The notes under the pieces are model-generated. The model did no database searches, was not told the origin of the DNA, and saw nothing but the letters and a program-made list of their open reading frames with translations. From Acutalibacteraceae bacterium (lineage in GTDB: Bacteria; Bacillota; Clostridia; Oscillospirales; Acutalibacteraceae), in contig JAZREP010000015.1 of NCBI GenBank assembly GCA_045660865.1, positions 28,266 through 60,265 of the forward strand: 32,000 nt of DNA, given 5' to 3'. Below are positions 385 to 12,922 of this stretch, piece by piece (the first letter of the stretch is position 1; each line of letters starts with the position of its first letter). A program made the translations under genes and the position numbers.

Positions 385-1749
385 CTACTTTCCAACACAA
401 AAATGTTTAAACACTTCATCTGCAACCGCATTGGTTACACGCTCGCCCGTTAATTCCATAAGTGCGGCTAAGGCGTCATCAATACAAACGCCGACCGCAT
501 CCAAGGTTAATTGTTCTTTCAAAGCATCCTTAGCCGATACAACCGATTGCATAGCTCGGTTAACGCAATTGTATTGGCGCTCGCCTGCTAAGACTACGCT
601 ATTTTCATCTAAACGGTTTAAGTAAAACTGCTCTTGTACCGCTTTTATGAGTTCATCAATACCTGTGCGGTTTTTAGCCGAAACTTCTACAATCGGGAAA
701 GTTTCATTTGATAAAAATGCTGTATTACCGCTGTTGCCTTTATCAATTTTATTTAATAAGACTATACACTTTTTATCACGGCATAAAGAAAGCACCTCTT
801 TATCCGCTTCGGTAAATTTCTCAGATGCATCAAATACCGCCAATACTAGTTCAGCAGTTTTTAAACGCTCTTTTGAGCGCTCAACACCGATTGACTCAAC
901 AATATCCTCAGTATCGTGCAAGCCTGCGGTATCGGCCAAACAGAGCTTGATGTCACCTAACATAACCGTTTCTTCAATAACATCACGGGTTGTGCCCGCA
1001 ATTTCGGTGACGATTGAACGAGATTGACCCGAAAGCAAGTTCATTAAAGTAGATTTGCCTACATTCGGCTTACCTACAATAACAGTATCTATACCGCTTT
1101 TATAAACCTTGCCTGCATCATAATTCTTTATAAGCTGTTCTAGTTGTGTTATAGCAGAGTTTAGTTCGGTTTCTAATAAATCTATACCGCTGAATTCCGG
1201 CTCCTCATCAGGATAGTCCGAGAAAACCGCAATACGTGCCGCAGAGTGAAGCAGACTGTCCTTAATAGCCGAAATTGCTTTAAAAATTGCGCCATCTTTA
1301 CCCTTTACGGCAAAATGCAACGCCTGTTCACCCGATGCCGATATAATATTTGCTACCGATTCGGCACGGCTTAAATCCAATTTACCGTTTAAAAAGGCAC
1401 GCTTTGTAAACTCGCCCGCCTGGGCAGGTACAGCCCCTGCGGCAAATACCGCGCGCAAAAGCCGTTTAACAACAAAACTGCCTCCGTGGCAGGAAAGTTC
1501 TATAACATCCTCACCAGTATAGCTTTTTGGGGCGGCAAATTTGAGCGCTACAACCTCATCAATTTTGCCGACATTATCATAAGCGGCACCGTAAAGAGCC
1601 GAATAACCGTTTATTTCGGTTAAAGTGCGGCCATCAAACGATTTAAACACCTTATCTGCCACAGATATTGCAAGTTCACCGGAAATACGGACAATACCTA
1701 TGCCGCCCTCACCCGACGGTGTGGAAACAGCTGCAATTGTTTCGGTCAC
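385..1749 (-). CDS. mnmE: tRNA modification GTPase MnmE (TrmE)
   Basis: ORF 385..1797. It has the [11 protein letters not shown]-loop, DTAG, NKID and the C-terminal FCVGK motif typical of MnmE. I place the start at GTG 1749 ([11 protein letters not shown]...), preceded by AAGGGAGGG. The 16 residues upstream in the ORF track are AT-rich leader, not protein. Confidence 0.93.
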
Positions 1750-1788
1750 GCTCAACCCTCCCTTTATATAAATTATATATAAAATATA

Positions 1789-1831
1789 ATACCACAATCC
1801 TACTATAGTTGCAAGAAGCGGATTGTGGTAT
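1789..1831 (-). terminator. Putative intrinsic terminator after dnaJ (12-bp perfect stem, long 19-nt loop)
   Basis: ATACCACAATCC (1789-1800) pairs perfectly with GGATTGTGGTAT (1820-1831). On the minus strand it is followed by T/A-rich sequence. The long loop and broken T-run lower confidence. Confidence 0.45.
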
Positions 1832-1835
1832 TTAT

Positions 1836-2984
1836 TTAGTCTTCAAAGAAGTCTTTTAACTTTTCGAAAAATGATTTTCTATTTTTATAATTTTTGTCAT
1901 CTGTTATGTTTTCAAACTGCTTTAACAGTTCTTTTTGTTCCTTTGAAAGGTTTTTAGGTACCTCAACGTTTACCTTAACATACTGGTCACCCTTGCCACC
2001 GTAGTTAAGCCGCTGAATACCCTTGCCGCGCAGTTTAAACTCATCACCCGACTGTGTACCCTCATGAATGGTGAATTTAACCTTGCCGTCTAGGGTGGGA
2101 ACTGTTATTTCTGCGCCCAAGGCCGCCTGTGCAAAGGTTACGGGAATTTCACAGAAAACATCATAGCCCTCACGCACAAAAATCGGGTGCGGTCTTACTG
2201 CAACGTGGATATGCAAATCACCTGCGGGACCACCGTTTTTGCCTGCATCACCGCCGCCACGGAGATTGATAATCTGTCCGTCATCAATTCCTGCCGGAAT
2301 ATCAACAGTTTGCTGTTTTGTGCGGCGTACTCTACCCTTGCCTGCGCAGGTATGACAGGGTTTATCAATAATCTTACCTGTGCCTCGACAATGGTCACAA
2401 ACACGGGAGGTTTGCATTGCGCCAAAGGGTGTGCGCTGGGTGACCTGAATCTGTCCCGTACCGTGACAGGACGGACAGGTTTTAGGCTGGCTGCCTTTTT
2501 CTGCACCACTACCGCCACATTCAGCGCAATTTTCAACACGAGTGATGTTTATAGTCTTTTTACAGCCTTTTGCTGCCTCTTCAAAGGAAAGGTTAACCGT
2601 AGCCGATGTATCGGCGCCCTTTCTTGGTGCATTGGGGTTGGCAGAACGCCCACCGCCAAAACCGCCACCAAAGAAGGAACCGAAAATATCACCAAGGTCA
2701 CCGAAATCCCCAAAACCGCCAAAGCCGCCACCGGGGCCGCCCGCACCAAAGTTAGGGTCTACCCCTGCGTGACCGTATTGGTCATATCTTGCACGCTTGC
2801 CGGCATCTGAAAGCACCTCGTAAGCCTCATTGACCTGTTTGAACTTAACCTCAGCCTCTTTATTATCCGGGTTTAGGTCGGGGTGGTATTTTTTTGCGGC
2901 TTTTCGGTATGCCTTTTTTAATTCATCATCTGAAGCGCCTCGGTCTACACCAAGCACCTCATAATAATCTTGCTTTTCTGCCAA
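1836..2984 (-). CDS. dnaJ: Molecular chaperone DnaJ (Hsp40)
   Basis: J-domain with HPD (KKYHPDLNP), a G/F-rich linker, and four CxxCxGxG zinc-finger repeats ([32 protein letters not shown]). Confidence 0.97.
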
Positions 2985-3006
2985 TTACTGACACTCCTCA
3001 AATTGA

Positions 3007-4857
<1,851 letters not shown>

Positions 4858-4870
4858 TTATGTTTATTTA

Positions 4871-5368
4871 TTAGTTGGCGACCTGTACCATCGCTGTACG
4901 AATAACGGTGTCACCTAATTTATAACCTTTTTGTAAAACCAGGGCAATTACGTTTTCACCCAAATTTTCATCCTCAATATGCATTACTGCCTCGTGGAAA
5001 TTCGGGTCAAAGGTTTCCCCTACTTCACCGATAGCGGTAATTCCCAATTGATTCCCAAGCTCACAGAACTGCTTAACTATAAGTTCAATGCCTTTATTGT
5101 AATCATTACTGCCCGGCTCACACGCGGCGGCGCGGTCAACATTATCCAAAATCGGAAGCATCGGTTTAATCATTTGCGCTTTTGCATATTCTAAAGCGGC
5201 AATGCGCTCACGCTCGGTGCGTTTTTTATAGTTATCAAACTCTGCCGCTGTGCGAAGCAACATTTCCTTAGCCTCGGCAAGTTCTTTTTGCAGTTGTTCT
5301 AATTGTGTATTATCTTCTTTTTTAGCTTCAGCCTTTTTAGGCTCTTTCTTTGCGGTTTGATTAGCCAA
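4871..5368 (-). CDS. grpE: Nucleotide exchange factor GrpE
   Basis: Position between hrcA and dnaK. It has a coiled-coil N-terminus and the C-terminal GrpE beta domain (FDPNFHEAV...V.V). The TTG start is preceded by GGAGGAA, which lies in the last codons of hrcA. Confidence 0.93.
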   Translation of the reverse strand: MANQTAKKEPKKAEAKKEDNTQLEQLQKELAEAKEMLLRTAAEFDNYKKRTERERIAALEYAKAQMIKPMLPILDNVDRAAACEPGSNDYNKGIELIVKQFCELGNQLGITAIGEVGETFDPNFHEAVMHIEDENLGENVIALVLQKGYKLGDTVIRTAMVQVAN

Positions 5369-5370
5369 CT

Positions 5371-6360
5371 TTATTCCTCCATATCTATTATGGTCTGTTC
5401 CAAAATTGCACCCAGCTGTTCAGCAAAATACTGTATGCTCGGCAGCATTTGGCGGTACGCCATTCGTGTAGGTCCTATAACACCTATACGGCCTATTTCG
5501 TTATTACCCATACTGTAACGAGCAACAACCATATTTGTAGGCTTTAATTCATCTATGCCGGTAGTGTCACCGAATACTACATCTACCTTACCGCTGATTT
5601 CGGTTATGAACGGCAAAAGTGCGTTTTGCTTGTTTGCCAATCCATAAGCATCGCCACCGAATGAAATGTTTGCGTTTGCAATTTCATCAATCATATCAAA
5701 CACGGCTGAAAAAAGCGGAATAAGCGCCAAAGCAAACTCCCCTGCCGGTGCAGTAAGGCTTTGCAGTCCTACCACAGATAGTTCAGAAAGCGAATGACCT
5801 ACAACCATTGCAGATATTACTCTGTCAAAGCGGGCAATTAAAGCGGGAGATATATCCTCACTTGTGCGACAGAAACGGCTTTTTGCTACTCCGTCAGAGG
5901 ATACTAACAGTACAAGCAAGGTCCTGCGGCTCATAGGCAGTACTTCTACTCGGCGCACATAGGAGCTTTCACAGCCAACCGTTGCCAGCAAGGTGGTAAG
6001 ACCCGTGAAATTTGAAAGAAACTGTGCGGCAAGACCAGATATATGCACAGGGTCCTTAGCTGCCTCATAGAGCATATCATCTATTGCGGTACGTATTTTC
6101 TGCGGCGGCGCGGCAGGCTTTAACATAGTTTTAATGTAAAGCTCGTACGCCTTGTTGGTAGGAATACGACCTGCCGAGGTGTGAGGCTGTTGCAAATAAC
6201 CAAGCTCACACAACTCACTCATCTCATTGCGCAATGTTGCGGATGATAGCGAGGTACCAAGCACGGAACAAAGTGCTTTTGAGCCAATCGGCTCACCCGT
6301 TTCTATATACGAATTTATAATAGCCTCTAAAATGGCCTGTTTTCTTGCGCTAAGCTCCAT
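5371..6360 (-). CDS. hrcA: Heat-inducible transcriptional repressor HrcA
   Basis: N-terminal winged helix (LSARKQAILEAIINSYIETGEPIGSKAL). It is the first gene of the hrcA-grpE-dnaK-dnaJ operon and a CIRCE element lies immediately upstream. Start set at ATG 6360 (MELSARK), after GGGGTGGTG. Confidence 0.93.
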   Translation of the reverse strand: MELSARKQAILEAIINSYIETGEPIGSKALCSVLGTSLSSATLRNEMSELCELGYLQQPHTSAGRIPTNKAYELYIKTMLKPAAPPQKIRTAIDDMLYEAAKDPVHISGLAAQFLSNFTGLTTLLATVGCESSYVRRVEVLPMSRRTLLVLLVSSDGVAKSRFCRTSEDISPALIARFDRVISAMVVGHSLSELSVVGLQSLTAPAGEFALALIPLFSAVFDMIDEIANANISFGGDAYGLANKQNALLPFITEISGKVDVVFGDTTGIDELKPTNMVVARYSMGNNEIGRIGVIGPTRMAYRQMLPSIQYFAEQLGAILEQTIIDMEE

Positions 6361-6390
6361 ATTCACCACCCCGTTAGCCACTTTAAGCAC

Positions 6391-6417
6391 TTAGCACTCA
6401 GGCACTTCGAGTGCTAA
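6391..6417 (-). promoter_or_regulatory. CIRCE operator (HrcA binding site)
   Basis: TTAGCACTC-AGGCACTTC-GAGTGCTAA is an exact match to the consensus TTAGCACTC-N9-GAGTGCTAA. It sits 31 nt upstream of the hrcA start. Confidence 0.95.
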
Positions 6418-6426
6418 ACCGATAAT

Positions 6427-6455
6427 AATTTAACACAGAATTTTCCATTTGTCAA
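6427..6455 (-). promoter_or_regulatory. Putative sigma-A promoter of the hrcA operon
   Basis: Minus strand: TTGACA (6455-6450), 17-nt spacer, TAAATT (6432-6427). CIRCE begins about 10 nt downstream, the usual arrangement. Confidence 0.45.
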
Positions 6456-6516
6456 TAGAAAACACTTAAATTTCGCAAATATTTTTTGACTTTCTTTGAC
6501 CTTTGTGTTTTAGGTA

Positions 6517-6897
6517 TTAGAAAATGCTTTCAAGGCTAACCGAATTTGCAGTTTTTATATGGATAAACTGTATGCGTATAACCGCTATTTGATTAAGAAT
6601 ATCCTCCTTGGTTTCACTTGTTGCAAGGTCACTTATACCTCCTATATACTCCCCTGCACTTGAAAGGTCGGTATTGTCTAAAAAATAAGACAACCTTTTT
6701 TCATAAGTAACCCAAGTTTCCTCCATATTCCGTGCTAATTTTTTTGCTTTTTCAAAATCCTCATCATTACAGGTCTGTTCTAACAAATCAAGAGAGCTTA
6801 GCATTTTTGAACAACAATCATTCAAAAATTTATATTGTACAAAGCAGACTCCGATTACAACAGCCGTAAGCACTATTACCACAAAAAAGCGTTTCAT
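6517..6897 (-). CDS. DUF4363 family protein (N-terminal membrane anchor)
   Basis: 126 aa with an N-terminal TM helix (FFVVIVLTAVVIGVCFV) followed by a helical domain. Size, layout and position directly downstream of a DUF421 gene fit the DUF4363 partner commonly seen in Firmicutes. Confidence 0.6.
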   Translation of the reverse strand: MKRFFVVIVLTAVVIGVCFVQYKFLNDCCSKMLSSLDLLEQTCNDEDFEKAKKLARNMEETWVTYEKRLSYFLDNTDLSSAGEYIGGISDLATSETKEDILNQIAVIRIQFIHIKTANSVSLESIF

Positions 6898-6902
6898 AGC
6901 CT

Positions 6903-7571
6903 CTACTCCTTTTCAACAATGTTGTATTCGCCGTTTACATCTGCCGTCATTAAAAAAACGTCCTCTTTTGATAAGTTTTTACTTTTTAAAATTTCGGTCA
7001 ATTTATCCTTATCTAAGCCGGACAATCGCAAACCGTCACTTAAAATGTTTCCGTCGCTTATAATTAAAAATGCCATAGTATCCCCCCTGTTCGGTTCTTC
7101 TTGCAGTTGTGCCGTAATCGGCTGGTATTCGCATTTTGAGAGCACACTTAATTGCCCGTCGGTTTCAAGCACTGCATAGGACACCTCACTAACATCAAAA
7201 ATACCCTGTTCACGCAACAGTTCCAATAAATCGGGGACTGTTACCCTTAAATCTCTCATACTTTTCTGGTCAATTTTACCGTTTGCAATAAGTATTGCAG
7301 AGCGCCCGTTTATTATCTTGCGTGCGGGAAAATATTTCATGGTTATTACAGAGGTCAGCACCTCCATAATGACAAGCGAGAAAATTGCCACAATACCGAT
7401 TAAAATAGGTTGATTGCCGTTTTCTAAGGGTGTTGCCGCCGCCTCGGAAATGAGAATGGTGATAACTAATTCACCCGGTTGCATATCCCCTACCTGCCGC
7501 TTTCCCATAATGCGTATGGCAAGAATTACAATAGCATAAACGATTGCTGAACGAATAAATATAACAAACAT
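6903..7571 (-). CDS. DUF421 (YetF/YdfS/YkjA-like) membrane protein
   Basis: N-terminal TM region with the conserved GKRQxGxMxPxELVxxIxI motif (GKRQVGDMQPGELVITILI), followed by a soluble C-terminal domain. This is typical of the YetF family. Confidence 0.8.
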   Translation of the reverse strand: MFVIFIRSAIVYAIVILAIRIMGKRQVGDMQPGELVITILISEAAATPLENGNQPILIGIVAIFSLVIMEVLTSVITMKYFPARKIINGRSAILIANGKIDQKSMRDLRVTVPDLLELLREQGIFDVSEVSYAVLETDGQLSVLSKCEYQPITAQLQEEPNRGDTMAFLIISDGNILSDGLRLSGLDKDKLTEILKSKNLSKEDVFLMTADVNGEYNIVEKE

Positions 7572-7630
7572 ACATTACCTTCTAAATATATAGTGTTTTT
7601 ATTTTTTTATTAAAATGGCAAAATATACAT

Positions 7631-7678
7631 AAAAAACCCTTACGAGAGTTCTGCTTTCAACTCTTCGTAAGGGTTTTT
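7631..7678 (-). terminator. Intrinsic terminator after the SLOG gene (A6-stem-loop-T5, bidirectional shape)
   Basis: CCCTTACGAGAGTT (7637-7650) pairs with AACTCTTCGTAAGGG (7659-7673) with a one-base bulge. It is flanked by AAAAAA (7631-7636) and TTTTT (7674-7678). It lies 4 nt after the stop of the 7682..8071 gene. Confidence 0.8.
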
Positions 7679-7681
7679 GAC

Positions 7682-8071
7682 TTAATATGAATAATTATTC
7701 TTTGTTATATGTATTTTTTTAATTTTAACGGGTTTTCCGCACTCTTTGGCAAAGTCAATCATTGACTTTGTGCCCCTGCTTTTCTCGTCCCAAAAACAAA
7801 TTACATAGTCGCTGACTTCTGCCATTTGCTTATTCCGTATTGGCCCGGCACTCTTGCCGTGCGTTTCCCAATCGGCAGGGTATTTTTCAACCTTAAACCC
7901 GTTTTCTTTTGCATAGCGTTCGCCTATTGCATCCGCACCGCTTGCACAACCCGAAATAATAATTATATCGTTCTCTTTTCGAATGTTGGACAAACAAAAA
8001 TCAATATATTCTTTTGCCTCTTCATAATCGTTATAATCTCTGCATCCTGCAATTACAACACGTTTAATCAT
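7682..8071 (-). CDS. SLOG-superfamily protein, DUF2493-like
   Basis: 129 aa. Motifs: VVIAGCRDY, IIISGCASGADAIGERYAKENG, PADWETHGKSAGPIRNKQM and VICFWDEKSRGTKSMI. These match the GxxxGAD...PADW..HGxxAGPxRNxxM...FWDGxSRGT pattern of DUF2493 / SLOG Rossmann proteins. Confidence 0.7.
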   Translation of the reverse strand: MIKRVVIAGCRDYNDYEEAKEYIDFCLSNIRKENDIIIISGCASGADAIGERYAKENGFKVEKYPADWETHGKSAGPIRNKQMAEVSDYVICFWDEKSRGTKSMIDFAKECGKPVKIKKIHITKNNYSY

Positions 8072-8158: not shown

Positions 8159-8362
8159 ATGATAGTGTTTGATAAACTGTGGGTTACTATGAAGAAAAAA
8201 GGCTTCTCTACTTATAAATTAAGAGAACAATGTGGAATTGATAGCAAAACAATACGAAGACTAAAAGCAAACGAAAATATAGAAACCAAAACGTTAGATA
8301 AATTATGCCATGCATTAAACTGTCAACTTGAAGATATTGCAGAATTTGTAAAAGAAAATTAG
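8159..8362 (+). CDS. Small Cro/C1 (Xre)-type helix-turn-helix transcriptional regulator
   Basis: 67 aa. FDKLWVTMKKKGFSTYKLREQCGIDSKTIRRLKANENIETKTLDKLCHALNCQLEDIAEF matches the HTH_26-like short regulator pattern. RBS AGGGGG lies 7 nt upstream of the ATG. Confidence 0.8.
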   Translation: MIVFDKLWVTMKKKGFSTYKLREQCGIDSKTIRRLKANENIETKTLDKLCHALNCQLEDIAEFVKEN

Positions 8363-8433: not shown

Positions 8434-9579
8434 TTACCAAAGATTACGATAAATCTGCATAACAGCTTCTTTATCCGGTGTTCTTGGGTTAGTTGCTGTA
8501 CAAGCATCTGCTAAAGCAGCTTCTGCCATAGCTTCAACTTTACTCATATAGTCATTTACAGAGATTGTGCCGATTTCGGAAATTTTTGCAGGAATACCCA
8601 TATCCTGATTCATAAACTGAATCCACTGGATTAAGGAGCGAACGCTCATAACCTTGTTATAGCTGCTTAAACCAAGTGTATGCGCAATTGTGCAATATCT
8701 CTTAACTGACGGATGATATTCGGACTGAGAATGACTGTCTTTATGTATATCTGCGTTGTATTCAATAATGTGCGGTAATAACATTGCATTCGCACGTCCA
8801 TGCGGAATATGGAAGTTTGCACCCAGCTGATGAGCCATACCGTGAGTAAGACCTAAAGAGGCTGAGTTAAAAGCAATTCCTGCCAAACAGGACGCTACGT
8901 GCATTTTCTGTCTTGCGTGAGTGTCATCACCGTTTAAATATGCTCTAAGTAAGAATACGCCAATGATTTCAACCGATTTTTCAGCCAAAGCTGCCGAGAA
9001 TTCGTTATGGTTAGTACTTACATAAGCCTCAATAGCGTGTGTTAATACGTCCATACCTGTATCGGCAGTGATTGCCGGCGGTACACTTTTAACAAGCTCC
9101 GCATCCAAAATAGCCTCCTCCGCTGTAAGGGAGTCGGATACTAACGGATGTTTAACCTTTGCTACTGTGTCATTAACTACAGCAAAAGATGTAACCTCAG
9201 AACCTGTTCCGCTGGTTGTAGGAATAGCAATTAAAGCAACATCTGCATATTGATTGGTCTTTAAAGCAAATTCACGAATGGCTTTTGAAGAGTCAATAGC
9301 AGAACCACCGCCTACCGAAACGATAACATCAGGCTGGTATTCCAACATTTTCTTAACACCGATAATAATTTTATCAACCGGTGCATCAGCAACTACATCG
9401 TGGAAAATGTCATAAGCTTTGCCGGATTTTTCCAAAGGCTCTGTAATCAATTTAATCATCGGACCGTTTGCAATGAAAGGGTCAGTAATAACCAAGACAC
9501 GCTTGTACGGCATTTGCGCAAGACGTTCAAGGGCATTATCACCAAAATGAATTTTAGTTTTAAGCTCAAATGATTTCAT
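8434..9579 (-). CDS. Iron-containing (group III) alcohol dehydrogenase
   Basis: 381 aa. It has the GGGSAIDSSKAI nucleotide-binding motif and the metal-binding His cluster (HGMAHQLG...HIPHGRANA) typical of the Fe-ADH / PduQ / EutG family. Confidence 0.9.
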   Translation of the reverse strand: MKSFELKTKIHFGDNALERLAQMPYKRVLVITDPFIANGPMIKLITEPLEKSGKAYDIFHDVVADAPVDKIIIGVKKMLEYQPDVIVSVGGGSAIDSSKAIREFALKTNQYADVALIAIPTTSGTGSEVTSFAVVNDTVAKVKHPLVSDSLTAEEAILDAELVKSVPPAITADTGMDVLTHAIEAYVSTNHNEFSAALAEKSVEIIGVFLLRAYLNGDDTHARQKMHVASCLAGIAFNSASLGLTHGMAHQLGANFHIPHGRANAMLLPHIIEYNADIHKDSHSQSEYHPSVKRYCTIAHTLGLSSYNKVMSVRSLIQWIQFMNQDMGIPAKISEIGTISVNDYMSKVEAMAEAALADACTATNPRTPDKEAVMQIYRNLW

Positions 9580-9666: not shown

Positions 9667-9714
9667 AAAAAATTAGACACATCATAGTAAAAATACTTAG
9701 AATGATGTGTCTAA
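9667..9714 (-). terminator. Intrinsic terminator of the NifU-like/GGGtGRT operon
   Basis: Perfect 13-bp stem: TTAGACACATCAT (9673-9685) pairs with ATGATGTGTCTAA (9702-9714). On the minus strand it is followed by TTTTTT (plus-strand A-run 9667-9672). It lies 33 nt after the stop codon. Confidence 0.8.
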
Positions 9715-9747
9715 TATTACTTTTTATAAAATGTAGCCTAAATCGGT

Positions 9748-10758
9748 TTAGAACTTGCCGGCTTTAGCAGCTTCTTCAACTGCAACTGCGCAAGCAACAG
9801 TCATACCAACCATGGGGTTGTTACCTGCACCGATAAGACCCATCATCTCAACGTGAGCAGGAACGGAAGAAGAACCTGCAAACTGAGCATCGGAATGCAT
9901 ACGGCCCATAGTATCGGTCATACCGTAAGAAGCGGGGCCTGCAGCCATATTGTCGGGATGCAATGTACGACCTGTACCGCCGCCCGAAGCAACAGAGAAG
10001 TATTTTTTGCCCTGCTCAATGCATTCTTTCTTATAAGTACCTGCAACAGGATGCTGGAAGCGAGTGGGGTTGGTGGAGTTACCTGTGATAGAAACGTCAA
10101 CACCCTCTAAATGCATGATAGCAACGCCCTCACGAACATCGTCAGCACCGTAGCAGCGAACCTTAGCACGCTCACCATTAGAATAAGCAATCTCCTCAAC
10201 GATGTTTACTTTACCGGTAGCATAGTCAAACTTAGTTTGAACATAGGTAAAGCCGTTGATACGAGAAATAATCTTAGCGGCGTCTTTACCAAGACCGTTA
10301 AGGATAACTCTTAAATCTTCTTTTCTTGCCTTGTTAGCGCTACGGGCCAAGCCGATAGCACCTTCAGCAGCAGCAAAAGATTCGTGGCCTGCTAAGAAAG
10401 CGAAGCATTTTGTTTCGTCTCTAAGCAACATTGCGCCTAAATTACCGTGGCCGATACCAACCTTACGGTCGTCAGCAACAGAACCGGGGATACAGAAAGA
10501 CTGTAAGCCAAGACCGATTTTTTCTGCAGCCTCAGCAGCAGAAGCTGCCTTATCTTTAATAGCGATTGCACAACCTACAACGTAAGCCCAGCAAGCGTTT
10601 TCGAAACAGATAGGTTGAATACCTTTAACAATATTGTAAGCATCAACGCCGGCGTCATCGCAAATCTGCTTAGCCTCTTCGATTGAAGAAATGCCGTGCT
10701 TTGCGAGTTCCTCATTGATTTGCTTAATTCTTCTGTCATAACTCTCAAATAATGCCAT
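9748..10758 (-). CDS. GGGtGRT family protein (conserved, function unknown)
   Basis: 336 aa. The eponymous motif GGGTGRT is at residues 259-265 (nt 9964-9984, verified codon by codon), followed by LHPDNMAAGPASYGMTD. RBS GGAGGTATAGG lies upstream. Confidence 0.8.
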   Translation of the reverse strand: MALFESYDRRIKQINEELAKHGISSIEEAKQICDDAGVDAYNIVKGIQPICFENACWAYVVGCAIAIKDKAASAAEAAEKIGLGLQSFCIPGSVADDRKVGIGHGNLGAMLLRDETKCFAFLAGHESFAAAEGAIGLARSANKARKEDLRVILNGLGKDAAKIISRINGFTYVQTKFDYATGKVNIVEEIAYSNGERAKVRCYGADDVREGVAIMHLEGVDVSITGNSTNPTRFQHPVAGTYKKECIEQGKKYFSVASGGGTGRTLHPDNMAAGPASYGMTDTMGRMHSDAQFAGSSSVPAHVEMMGLIGAGNNPMVGMTVACAVAVEEAAKAGKF

Positions 10759-10774
10759 TTCCTATACCTCCCTA

Positions 10775-11467
10775 TTATTCTACGCGCGGGTCAAGCAGGC
10801 GGGCGGCATCATCCACACGACCATACTGGCCGCTGGCTTTTTGCATAGCCTCATTTGCATCCATACCGTTACGAATCATTTCCATCATTTTGCCGAGGTG
10901 AACGAATTTATAGCCTGTAATCTGGCCTTCCTCGTCAACTGCGATTTTGGTTATGTAGCCTTCAGCCAACTCTAAGTAGCGAGGACCTTTAACCTTGGTA
11001 GCATAGGTTGTACCAACCTGTGAACGAAGACCTTTACCTAAATCTTCAAGGCCTGCGCCTACCGGCAGACCGTCCTCAGAGAAGGCGGTTTGGGTACGGC
11101 CGTATACGATTTGTAAGAACAGCTCACGCATAGCTGTATTTATAGCATCACAAACCAAGTCGGTATTGAGTGCTTCAAGCAAGGTCTTGCCCACGAGGAT
11201 TTCAGAAGCCATAGCGGCAGAATGGGTCATACCCGAACAGCCGATTGTTTCAACCAAAGCCTCCTCAATAATACCCTCTTTAACGTTCAGTGTCAGCTTG
11301 CAAGCGCCCTGTTGGGGTGCGCACCAGCCGATACCGTGGGTCAGACCGGAAATATCTTTAATTTCCGTAACCTGCGTCCATCTACCCTCCTGCGGGATGG
11401 GTGCAGGACCGTGATATGCACCTTTTGCCAAAGGACACATATTTTCTACTTCATGTGAATAGTTCAT
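10775..11467 (-). CDS. NifU/IscU-like iron-sulfur cluster scaffold-domain protein with a ~100-aa C-terminal extension
   Basis: The core GIGWCAPQQGACKLTLNVKEGIIEEALVETIGCSGMTHSAAMASEILVGKTLLEAL resembles the IscU N-terminal domain (Cys...GC.....A.....GK...A). Start set at ATG 11467 (MNYSHEV), after AAAGGAG. The upstream 20 aa in the ORF track are leader. Confidence 0.7.
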   Translation of the reverse strand: MNYSHEVENMCPLAKGAYHGPAPIPQEGRWTQVTEIKDISGLTHGIGWCAPQQGACKLTLNVKEGIIEEALVETIGCSGMTHSAAMASEILVGKTLLEALNTDLVCDAINTAMRELFLQIVYGRTQTAFSEDGLPVGAGLEDLGKGLRSQVGTTYATKVKGPRYLELAEGYITKIAVDEEGQITGYKFVHLGKMMEMIRNGMDANEAMQKASGQYGRVDDAARLLDPRVE

Positions 11468-11545
11468 GATTTTACTCCTTTCCAGATATCTAAAAAAGAT
11501 TATACACAAATTTTGTAAAAAAAACAATAGTTAATACTTATTTTG

Positions 11546-11574
11546 TTGCAATTTTTTTATTTTGTAATTATACT
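11546..11574 (+). promoter_or_regulatory. Putative sigma-A promoter of the flavin reductase gene
   Basis: TTGCAA (11546-11551), 17 nt, TATACT (11569-11574), about 40 nt upstream of the start codon. Confidence 0.55.
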
Positions 11575-11616
11575 ATACAAATGCAGAATATATATTCTGG
11601 TGAAAGGATGATTTTT

Positions 11617-12111
11617 ATGCCGTTTAAAGAAATAAAAGCAACCGATATAAAGGATAATCTTATTTCACTTATTCGTGATGAATGGGCGCTTGTATGTGCA
11701 GGAAACGAAGATAAGCATAATATGATGACTGCAAGCTGGGGCTTTTTCGGTGAAATGTGGGGCAAGGATTGTGTGATTTCTGCTATCCGCCCGCAAAGAC
11801 ACACATTTGGTTTCATAGAGGAAAACGACACCTTTGCCCTTTGTTTTATGGGAGATAACAAGGCAGTACACAAAATTTGCGGAAGCAAATCAGGCCGTGA
11901 TATTGACAAAACCAAGGAAACCGGTCTTACCCCAATCTTTGCCGACGGAACGGTTTACTTTGAAGAAGCAAGACTGGTTATAATTGTAAAAAAATTGTAT
12001 GCCAACACCATTAATCACGAAAACTTTATAGACAAAGAGCCTTTAAAGTGGTATGACGGTGATACACACAAGATGTTTGTTGCCGAAATTGTCAAAGTCC
12101 TTGAAAAATAA
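11617..12111 (+). CDS. Flavin reductase-like (FMN-binding split-barrel) family protein
   Basis: NMMTASWGFFGEMWGK, IRPQRHT, CGSKSGRDIDK and GLTP are motifs typical of this family. Start set at ATG 11617 (MPFKEIK), 8 nt after AAAGGA. ATG 11608 is an alternative. Confidence 0.8.
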   Translation: MPFKEIKATDIKDNLISLIRDEWALVCAGNEDKHNMMTASWGFFGEMWGKDCVISAIRPQRHTFGFIEENDTFALCFMGDNKAVHKICGSKSGRDIDKTKETGLTPIFADGTVYFEEARLVIIVKKLYANTINHENFIDKEPLKWYDGDTHKMFVAEIVKVLEK

Positions 12112-12200: not shown

Positions 12201-12551
12201 ATGAAAAAGCCATTATTTTATCTTTGCAATCTTGCGGTTGGTGTTGTAAACGGACTCTTCGGTGCAGGCGGCGGTATGCTTGCCGTACCGCTTTTAAAAA
12301 GTACAGACATTTCTCAAAAGCAGGCTCACGCAAATTGCGTTGCTATTATTCTGCCTATGACTGTTTTCAGCGCAATACTATATTTGGCGCAAGGGCGAAT
12401 GGCGGTGTCCGACGCACTGCCGTTTTTTGTGCCGGGTTTGTTAGGAGCTTTAGCGGGTACCATTATTTTATCTAAAATACAAAACAAGTGGCTCAAAAAG
12501 GTTTTTGCCGCCTTTATGATTTGGGCAGGAATTAGTTTGGTGATGAGATGA
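12201..12551 (+). CDS. TSUP (TauE/SafE, DUF81) family membrane protein, half-size unit 1
   Basis: 116 aa, about 4 TM helices. N-terminal GxxGAGGGMLAVPLL motif characteristic of TSUP repeat units. Confidence 0.75.
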   Translation: MKKPLFYLCNLAVGVVNGLFGAGGGMLAVPLLKSTDISQKQAHANCVAIILPMTVFSAILYLAQGRMAVSDALPFFVPGLLGALAGTIILSKIQNKWLKKVFAAFMIWAGISLVMR

Positions 12552-12922
12552 ATTCTATTATAACTTTTTTAGCCGGATTTTTGTCGGGAATGTTTGGCGC
12601 AATGGGTCTTGGAGGCGGCGGTGTGCTGCTTATTTACCTTACTTTATTTGCTGGAATGGAGCAATTGCAAGCCCAGGGTGTAAACCTGCTGTTTTTTATA
12701 CCCATAGGCACAGTTGCCACCATTATTTACGCAATAAGAAAACAAATAAAGTGGAAAACTGTTTTGATTTTTGCTTGTCTTGGTATTGCAGGTTCTGCCG
12801 GCGGTACCTATATTTCAAGTTTGCTTGGCGGAACATTGCTTTCCAAACTGTTTGGAGGCGCTTTAATTTTAACCGGAATTTGGCAACTTTTCAGTAGACA
12901 AAAAGAAAAACCGGTGGTATAA
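12548..12922 (+). CDS. TSUP (TauE/SafE, DUF81) family membrane protein, half-size unit 2
   Basis: 124 aa, about 4 TM helices. It has its own GMFGAMGLGGGGVLLIYL motif. Its ATG overlaps the unit-1 stop (ATGA at 12548-12551). Confidence 0.75.
   Translation: MNSIITFLAGFLSGMFGAMGLGGGGVLLIYLTLFAGMEQLQAQGVNLLFFIPIGTVATIIYAIRKQIKWKTVLIFACLGIAGSAGGTYISSLLGGTLLSKLFGGALILTGIWQLFSRQKEKPVV

Follow-up and report, generated by a model that had tools for sequence, protein, structure and literature searches.

In the canonical Firmicute gapA operon (cggR-gapA-pgk-tpiA-pgm-eno) the gene for enolase follows that for phosphoglycerate mutase (PGM). The Fe-S hydro-lyases dehydrate serine and 2,3-dihydroxy acids by Lewis-acid activation of the beta-hydroxyl, and 2-phosphoglycerate (2-PG), the substrate of enolase, is a phosphate analogue of these compounds; we know of no hydro-lyase that has a cluster-binding subunit of the IscU fold. 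Enolase is the key target of fluoride (Ki ~80 uM) and is often found under fluoride riboswitches (PMC11139923), and a transferable fluoride operon of Enterobacter cloacae has the order riboswitch-ppaC-uspA-eno-gpmA-crcB (PMC5533749). Here we describe a pair of genes, one IscU-like (designated A) and the other encoding a protein of the GGGtGRT family (designated B), which lie on the minus strand at 9748-11467 of a 32,000-nucleotide stretch of an Acutalibacteraceae genome (contig JAZREP010000015.1, positions 28,266 to 60,265; hereafter the window), A being 16 nt upstream of B in the list of open reading frames (ORFs).

Judging from the sequences and from the genes beside the pair in other genomes, our leading, still tentative, proposal is that A and B are the two subunits of an Fe-S enzyme that works beside phosphoglycerate mutase; this would most likely be a non-homologous and fluoride-insensitive enolase. 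The broader proposal, that A-B is a metalloenzyme of the phosphoglycerate/phosphoenolpyruvate (PEP) node that belongs to the fluoride response, we consider reasonably probable. The glycolytic operons and fluoride riboswitches on which these proposals draw were found outside the window, where A-B has no glycolytic-operon placement, and neither context is visible within it. The pairing of B with a gene annotated as NifU can already be seen in annotations and papers; the functional lead appears to be new. Below, A' and B' are the counterparts in a divergent sister clade, and loci are labeled L followed by a number.

Pairing and sequence conservation

A homolog scan of one genome per GTDB species gave ~600 matching stretches, of which 598 were confirmed relatives, and the best 80 loci were kept. 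An A homolog lay immediately upstream of B on the same strand in 74 of these 80 species-representative loci; the other six start within ~125 nt of B at a contig end, so that adjacency could be read in 74. The same-strand gap was 10-57 nt in nearly all of the 74. An earlier note, made from the letters of the window alone, had read the pair as a two-gene operon and had named conserved adjacency as a check, and adjacency was indeed found in all 74 testable loci and also in the divergent clade (B' 54% and A' 56% identity), in which the stop and start codons overlap, making this a genuine self-contained two-gene unit. The loci represent at least seven phyla: Bacillota (Clostridia, Negativicutes, Erysipelotrichales), Bacteroidota, Spirochaetota, Myxococcota, Desulfobacterota, Acidobacteriota and Actinomycetota, with further occurrences in a Methanobacteriaceae metagenome-assembled genome (MAG), marine Vibrio and Persicobacter.

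Over their full lengths, identity between phyla was 76-86% for B and 73-82% for A, rising to 84-94% within taxa; since within-taxon identity exceeds that between phyla, slow vertical evolution, and not only recent transfer, is indicated. The alignments show extreme purifying selection on both proteins from end to end, the C-terminal extension of A included. Among 1.84 billion representative proteins HMMER recovered, in essence, a single tight cluster together with fragments. Apparent fusions of B (to an ABC ATPase, GuaA/GMP synthase, a SusD-like protein and others) were rejected as metagenome assembly chimeras; many 50%-cluster representatives (P0241-P0390) are such chimeras carrying B fragments, and there is a risk that they are read as domain fusions. 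Matches in plasmid collections were set aside as chromids or mis-binned chromosome fragments, useful for the Vibrio and Persicobacter loci only. The window genes themselves are 92-97% identical to many database entries and are ordinary members of a catalogued but uncharacterized family.

We found no conserved third neighbor gene: the 139 nearest neighbors from other genomes comprised 201 Pfam families, none seen more than three times, and on this ground the genes flanking the pair in the window were rejected as a functional hint. Long ORFs antisense to A-B occur in GC-rich genomes (L033 2198-5134, minus strand, and 25 other loci); they cluster because the sense genes A-B are so conserved, and we rejected this antisense "family" as an artefact of simple ORF prediction; naive gene callers would annotate these ORFs wrongly.

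Glycolytic gene context

In three Oscillospiraceae species (loci L042, L048 and L071) the pair stands in the order pgk-tpiA-gpmI-A-B, with a gap of only 3 nt between gpmI and A in L042, and a fourth genome (L072) has tpiA-gpmI-x-A-B. Because eno comes after phosphoglycerate mutase in the gapA operon, A-B occupies the eno slot in this arrangement. A search for an enolase signature in 104 locus stretches (800 kb total) found none, and since Pfam gives only NifU_N and GGGtGRT for the two proteins, A-B is not a member of the enolase family. A pyruvate kinase gene lies near A-B in L034 and L088.

The same two loci hold further genes. L034 carries at 5649-8059 a protein like the D-component of 2-hydroxyglutaryl-CoA dehydratase (HGD-D) and a BcrAD/BadFG ATPase "activase" between A-B and pyruvate kinase, and L088 has a 1414-residue BcrAD_BadFG+DUF2229 protein (1707-5951) in the equivalent place; these genes could be there by chance or could hint that the pair needs reductive activation.

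The divergent A'B' clade is always embedded with genes of phosphoglycerate-mutase type, in five different gene orders. The partners are ApgM, the archaeal-type cofactor-independent PGM (iPGM; NF003104, 517 bits versus a cutoff of 489), and a His_Phos_1 protein of the dPGM superfamily, sometimes with a bacterial iPGM or a HAD phosphatase; there are up to three PGM types per cluster. These islands also hold an XRE regulator and a conserved membrane-anchored protein. A conserved protein of 317-332 residues with two N-terminal hydrophobic helices always follows B' (L081 9005-9958, L085 6992-7972, L090 2067-3065, L102 3808-4770), and neither Pfam nor NCBIfam gave a match to it. At 3938-4105 of L085, between the ApgM gene and the next ORF, lies a group II intron domain (RF02001, 43.3 bits); together with transposase and YodL genes in L081 it suggests that the A'B' islands are mobile.

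These contexts (pgk-tpi-gpmI-A-B, PGM-type genes, pyruvate kinase) apply equally to some other reaction of the phosphoglycerate node, such as a ferredoxin-linked bypass of GAPDH and PGK from glyceraldehyde 3-phosphate to 3-phosphoglycerate, a phosphoglycerate mutase or phosphatase, or a step that consumes PEP. The four-Cys cluster proposed below would suit electron transfer, the divergent clade retains Cys202 of B, and metal-ATP enzymes are fluoride-sensitive too (PMC11139923). Pfam scans, however, detected no nucleotide-, flavin- or pterin-binding domain, Fe-S-only aldehyde oxidation is without known precedent, and the place after gpmI, along with the eno-gpmA precedent (PMC5533749), points to the next step of the pathway. 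A redundant mutase is improbable where clusters already hold up to three PGM types, for which reason we down-weighted a PGM analogue. Overall we regard a different reaction at this node as unlikely.

Fluoride riboswitches and exporters

Eight contigs from three phyla have a fluoride riboswitch (RF01734) immediately ahead of the pair or of the operon that contains it, with scores of 45.5-60.7 bits against a threshold of 34 bits. In L065 the riboswitch (57.6 bits) lies 47 nt upstream of A, in the order A-B-DUF190-crcB-crcB. Five metagenome contigs (L092-L096; 45.5-52.4 bits, Rfam-confirmed), which have terminator-type expression platforms, came from a targeted pattern scan designed for the riboswitch-pair arrangement and so show that it exists, not how frequent it is. 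One of these five has the order riboswitch-A-B-DUF190-crcB. L065 and L092-L096 fall into at least four lineages, and DNA identity from one group to another is 72-79%. Vibrio sp. THAF191d (L097) has riboswitch-A-B (60.7 bits) and Persicobacter psychrovividus (L098) has riboswitch-CLC-A-B (50.1 bits). In six loci, drawn from three phyla, the pair has a CrcB or CLC exporter beside it; the CrcB loci are L038, L054, L065, L077 and L095, some with DUF190 as well, and hosts of such CrcB-adjacent pairs include a deltaproteobacterial MAG, a Geobacter and a Prolixibacteraceae genome. Bacillota, Bacteroidota, Pseudomonadota and Desulfobacterota are all represented in this link to the fluoride regulon. 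We found no paper that links NifU or GGGtGRT to fluoride.

The metagenome contig L094 has two riboswitches, one (1378-1438) preceding A-B, with an EamA transporter next, and one (3962-4025) preceding a membrane ORF that is a cation/H+ antiporter by look only; with separate riboswitches, A-B is under fluoride control of its own and is not merely carried along with an exporter. In L038 (the deltaproteobacterial MAG) a gene of the sulfatase/alkaline-phosphatase superfamily, to which iPGM and ApgM also belong, lies between crcB and A-B at 1677-3209.

The logic of the E. cloacae operon, in which a PGM-family gene, the enzyme of the next step and an exporter are combined on a mobile, riboswitch-controlled unit, is common to L065, L095, L098 and the A'B' islands. 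The difference is that A-B or A'B' stands in the place of eno, and that in the A'B' islands an XRE-type regulator is present and no riboswitch was detected. In the window itself Rfam gave no match, and the 113-nt intergenic region upstream of A leaves no space for a fluoride riboswitch.

Membership of the fluoride regulon beside CrcB, CLC and DUF190 might also mean that A-B is a stress-protection module induced by fluoride, such as a system for repair or storage of Fe-S clusters or metals, a fluoride-insensitive pyrophosphatase (PPase) or a general phosphoesterase. Metal and oxidative stress follow from fluoride exposure, and fluoride-tolerant PPases are frequent in riboswitch operons (PMC11139923, PMC5533749); mutants of the pair are dispensable in vitro, and B is rich in invariant His and Asp residues. 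Such a module leaves unexplained the pgk-tpi-gpmI placement and the invariable PGM-type partners of the divergent clade, and the extreme constraint on both proteins along their whole length is more typical of a core enzyme. A very abundant soluble PPase would in general be costly for anaerobes whose energy currency is pyrophosphate, as in Bacteroides and many Clostridia, and since the context holds no pointer to one, we down-weighted a PPase analogue. We judge a stress-protection role to be improbable.

Protein A compared with IscU scaffolds

The core of A (residues ~40-122) is related to the IscU/NifU/SufU scaffold proteins (PF01592; e.g., IscU of E. coli and A. aeolicus). Pfam NifU_N matched residues 56-113 (model positions 38-95 of 127) at 23.2 bits versus a cutoff of 22, and hhalign of A against the sequence that we took to be E. 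coli IscU, which the PDB alignments corroborated, gave a probability of 88.7%, with residues ~50-104 of A aligned to IscU 34-93 at 45% identity. PDB profile matches were to 4eb5 and 2kqk. The earlier note's description of an IscU-like core with about 100 extra C-terminal residues thus held up, the extension being conserved and ~105 residues long; the homology of the core appears real but weak and distant.

Among 69 homologs the invariant residues of A were Cys49, Cys56, Cys77, Cys106, His44 and His82. The Cys-ligand check suggested in the earlier note went against a standard scaffold: Cys63 of IscU aligns to Cys77 of A, while Cys37 and Asp39 are replaced by Gln53 and Ala55, so that of the ligand Cys only Cys63 is verified. 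Like Cys106 of IscU, Cys106 of A opens the last core helix, and the NTD(L/I)...C motif makes an equivalence of the two plausible, although this part is outside the aligned range. Relative to IscU, A has the new invariant Cys49 and Cys56 flanking the replaced loop, the invariant His44 and His82 and the extension after the core, and it always adjoins a GGGtGRT gene. Cysteine desulfurase (aminotransferase class V) was absent from the 25 most frequent families of the 139 nearest neighbors, and A failed the NCBIfam equivalog models (NifU_clost, 27.7 versus 187.9 bits; iscU, 21.9 versus 192.4; SufU, 18.7 versus 92.5). The divergent A' keeps all four Cys.

The earlier note's preferred model, a dedicated scaffold for Fe-S or metal assembly that matures B or a B-bound cofactor, can appeal to the homology of the A core to IscU, to the iron-dependent expression described below, and to the conserved Cys89, Cys118, Cys202 and Cys246 and six invariant His of main-clade B. 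It is not supported: Cys37 and Asp39 are replaced, the equivalog models are missed by ~160 bits and no desulfurase recurs nearby. In addition, A is as conserved as B, and a NifU-annotated protein is detected alongside GGGtGRT, as would be expected of a stoichiometric subunit more than of a catalytic chaperone; three Cys of B (Cys89, Cys118 and Cys246) are missing from B', A' having kept all of its Cys; and the fluoride and glycolysis contexts are left unexplained. We therefore consider a scaffold very unlikely, and of the alternatives raised in the earlier note it is the metalloenzyme complex, not cofactor maturation, that fits best. The four-Cys set without the labile Asp, the docking-like extension and a conservation and abundance equal to those of B suggest that A is a permanent subunit that carries a stably bound cluster or metal; its four invariant Cys have the look of a permanent binding site and not of a labile one used in assembly.

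Protein B, of the GGGtGRT family

B matched Pfam PF14057 with 641.7 bits versus a cutoff of 27, its residues 4-330 covering model positions 1-327 of 327, and the GGGtGRT motif was invariant in 79 family members and in the divergent clade. As the earlier note had stated, the family has no assigned activity, and papers up to 2026 still call its function unknown. No characterized homolog of B was found by PDB sequence search (phmmer), PDB profile search or NCBIfam, and permissive Pfam scans of 23 members gave only noise (e.g., NeqB_N, E = 0.013). A likeness of the motif to the T4 loop of FtsZ/tubulin (GGGTGTG) and to DhaK (GGGSGHEP) is at motif level only, and we did not use it as evidence.

Of the Cys conserved in main-clade B only Cys202 is kept in B', and since B' loses Cys while A' keeps all four, any cluster would belong to A. 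The residues of B that are kept even in the divergent clade include H125-E-S, ITGNST, K243-K244, the strand and GGGTGRT loop, H267, D269, Y278, D282, R286, H288, SSS296-298, H302, E304 and GNNP, and these resemble an active site suited to an anionic substrate that is small and probably phosphorylated.

A proposed two-subunit Fe-S enolase

We propose that A and B are subunits of one metalloenzyme and not a scaffold and its client. In A the IscU fold would have been turned into a permanent cluster- or metal-binding subunit through Cys49, Cys56, Cys77 and Cys106, to which His44 and His82 may contribute, and the C-terminal extension would dock A onto B. B would supply the substrate pocket, with an anion- or phosphate-binding strand-loop (SVAS-GGGTGRT) and invariant Arg and Lys, and its His, Asp, Glu and Ser residues could serve as acid/base groups. 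The reaction would most likely be the Fe-S-dependent interconversion of 2-PG and PEP. The cluster, in the role of Lewis acid, would activate the C3 hydroxyl, by analogy with serine dehydratase, class I fumarase and IlvD/Edd, and the two-Mg2+ site that is poisoned by fluoride and phosphate in canonical enolase would not be involved.

Such an enzyme would resemble the two-subunit Fe-S hydro-lyases (L-serine dehydratase alpha/beta, class I fumarase alpha/beta and the tartrate dehydratase TtdAB; also IlvD/Edd) in its chemistry, the elimination of a beta-hydroxyl from an alpha-substituted carboxylate, and in its heteromeric architecture, its bias toward anaerobes and the presence of an iron-free isozyme alongside; it differs in having no detected homology to them and four invariant Cys rather than three. 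With canonical Mg2+ enolase A-B shares, at some loci, the operon place after gpmI, the control by fluoride riboswitches and the PGM-type genes and CrcB nearby, and also the abundance of a glycolytic enzyme, whereas it has no sequence relationship to that enzyme, has two subunits and an iron-regulated expression, and probably depends on an Fe-S cluster rather than on two Mg2+ ions.

Published physiology is available for several homologs. In Bacteroides thetaiotaomicron BT0173 (GGGtGRT) and BT0174 (NifU) drop 11-13-fold under iron limitation (PMC10434189), and the homolog of Clostridium pasteurianum is among the proteins that change with iron availability, by up to 7.1-fold (PMC5395762). When B. 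thetaiotaomicron was screened for transposon mutants that no longer silence the regulator Cur in glucose, the hits were pfkA, an M16 peptidase locus and BT0173-4, the BT0173-4 mutants growing normally (bioRxiv 10.64898/2026.04.10.717545). High in vivo expression of the pair is documented for several phyla, with a protein annotated as NifU detected by in vivo proteomics alongside GGGtGRT in several of the same taxa (PMC11204068), and in the rumen the GGGtGRT protein co-varies with GAPDH, PEPCK, PPDK and fumarase (PMC7035244).

An Fe-S enolase would account for these observations as follows. Lack of the di-Mg2+ site would explain induction by fluoride in Vibrio, Persicobacter and several Bacillota; an oxygen-labile cluster that is safe in strict anaerobes, the constitutive high expression there; Fe-S dependence, the iron-sparing repression; and a coexisting Mg-enolase, the dispensability of the pair and its mild pfkA-like signaling phenotype. 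The fullest version of the proposal, and a more speculative one, is that the pair is a so far unrecognized core enzyme of glycolysis, a fluoride-insensitive two-subunit Fe-S enolase for which the IscU fold was exapted; it would be widespread and abundant among gut, rumen, mouth and sediment anaerobes and would serve as a fluoride-inducible back-up in facultatives such as Vibrio.

Several points weigh against an Fe-S enolase. Homology of A or B to Fe-S hydro-lyases (serine dehydratase, class I fumarase, IlvD/Edd, aconitase) was not found in Pfam, NCBIfam or the PDB even at permissive thresholds, and Pfam, which gives NifU_N and GGGtGRT only, found no enolase N- or C-terminal domain in either protein. 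A has four invariant Cys, versus the usual three ligands and open Fe site of catalytic Fe-S dehydratases. AlphaFold2 (AF2) models built from shallow alignments were poor (pLDDT 61 and 52), with the most conserved part of B (residues 220-303) outside the models, and a Foldseek search with a low-confidence AF2 model gave no match. In most loci, the window included, the pair stands alone, with neither glycolytic nor fluoride neighbors; placement in a glycolytic operon is limited to four related Clostridia, and the riboswitch was upstream of the pair in one of the 74 unbiased species-representative loci, the five metagenome contigs having come from a search aimed at that arrangement. The context cannot strictly separate enolase from another PGM-adjacent step or a fluoride-insensitive pyrophosphatase, and if gut anaerobes make both A-B and canonical enolase at high levels, this redundancy would call for an explanation. 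We found no paper describing an Fe-S enolase.

A-B is among the most conserved and most highly expressed function-unknown protein pairs of anaerobic bacteria, and it has come up in proteomes of the rumen, the chicken gut and the human gut. If the functional lead is right, the type of enzyme would be categorically new. An Fe-S enolase, or another bypass in lower glycolysis, would be a new enzyme of central carbon metabolism and the first example in which the scaffold fold of IscU serves permanently as a catalytic or redox subunit; it would account for the fluoride tolerance of many anaerobes, tie iron availability to glycolytic flux in commensals such as B. thetaiotaomicron, require metabolic models to be corrected, and alter the expected effect of fluoride and of enolase-targeting antibiotics on oral and gut microbiota. 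Even if the enolase guess is wrong, membership of the fluoride regulon and the tie to phosphoglycerate mutase are two concrete leads for a protein that had none.

Layout of the pair in the window

The features of the operon and its flanks are as follows.

8434-9579, Fe-ADH gene, flanking the pair
9667-9715, minus strand, intrinsic terminator with a 14-bp stem, a 16-nt loop and a U6 tail on the coding strand
9748-10758, minus strand, gene B, 336 residues, GGGtGRT family (PF14057)
9964-9984, minus strand, GGGTGRT codons, residues 259-265 (SGGGTGRT is 258-265), preceded by the hydrophobic strand KYFSVAS
10759-10774, minus strand, A-B spacer of 16 nt, between the A stop codon (10775-10777) and the B start (10758)
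10767-10772, minus strand, putative ribosome-binding site GGGAGG of gene B, 8 nt ahead of its start codon
10775-11467, minus strand, gene A, 230 residues, ATG at 11467, IscU-like
11468-11580, minus strand, intergenic promoter region of 113 nt, AT-rich, common to the divergent flavin-reductase-like gene
11475-11480, minus strand, putative ribosome-binding site AAGGAG of gene A, 7 nt ahead of its start codon
11499-11504, minus strand, candidate -10 element TATAAT, a perfect match
11522-11527, minus strand, weak -35 element TTGTTT, a 3/6 match
11581-12111, flavin-reductase-like gene, flanking the pair and divergent from A

The sequence of gene A includes GWCAP...GAC...IGCSGMTHSAAMA, and alignments of homologs favored the ATG over an upstream TTG at 11527 as its start. 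Both genes are on the minus strand, which the earlier note had not stated. The ORFs and their translation agreed with that note on the sizes and 16-nt spacing of the two genes and on the position of the GGGTGRT motif, as they did on the presence of a terminator, whose perfect stem had been given as 13 bp and folds as 14 bp. Its arms are TTAGACACATCAT at 9673-9685 and ATGATGTGTCTAA at 9702-9714, and the RNA fold has an energy of -23.2 kcal/mol with a z-score of -5.6, none of 200 shuffles folding equally well. The suggestion that the pair has its own promoter region fared less evenly: the 113 nt are AT-rich and hold the perfect -10, but the -35 is weak and a consensus promoter scan made no minus-strand call in 11468-11580, so that a promoter ahead of A is plausible. 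The two redox neighbors that had been cited in support of a redox function are both present; as they are not conserved beside the pair in other genomes, the argument built on them is void. Gene B shares the lowest effective number of codons (Nc) in the window (41.7), which means that its codon bias is the strongest there and agrees with the published abundance of the protein in vivo.

Elsewhere in the window, two ORFs of the TauE/SafE (sulfite exporter) family at 12201-12551 and 12548-12922 are each of half length (116 and 124 residues) and overlap by 4 nt, representing either a split gene or a two-piece transporter. A YspA/SLOG-family gene (7682-8071, minus strand) is divergent from a small Cro/C1-type HTH gene (8159-8362, plus strand). 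On the minus strand of 1836-6390, HrcA, confirmed by Pfam, is encoded at 5371-6390, and the three ORFs downstream of it (165, 614 and 382 residues) would be grpE-dnaK-dnaJ by size and order alone.

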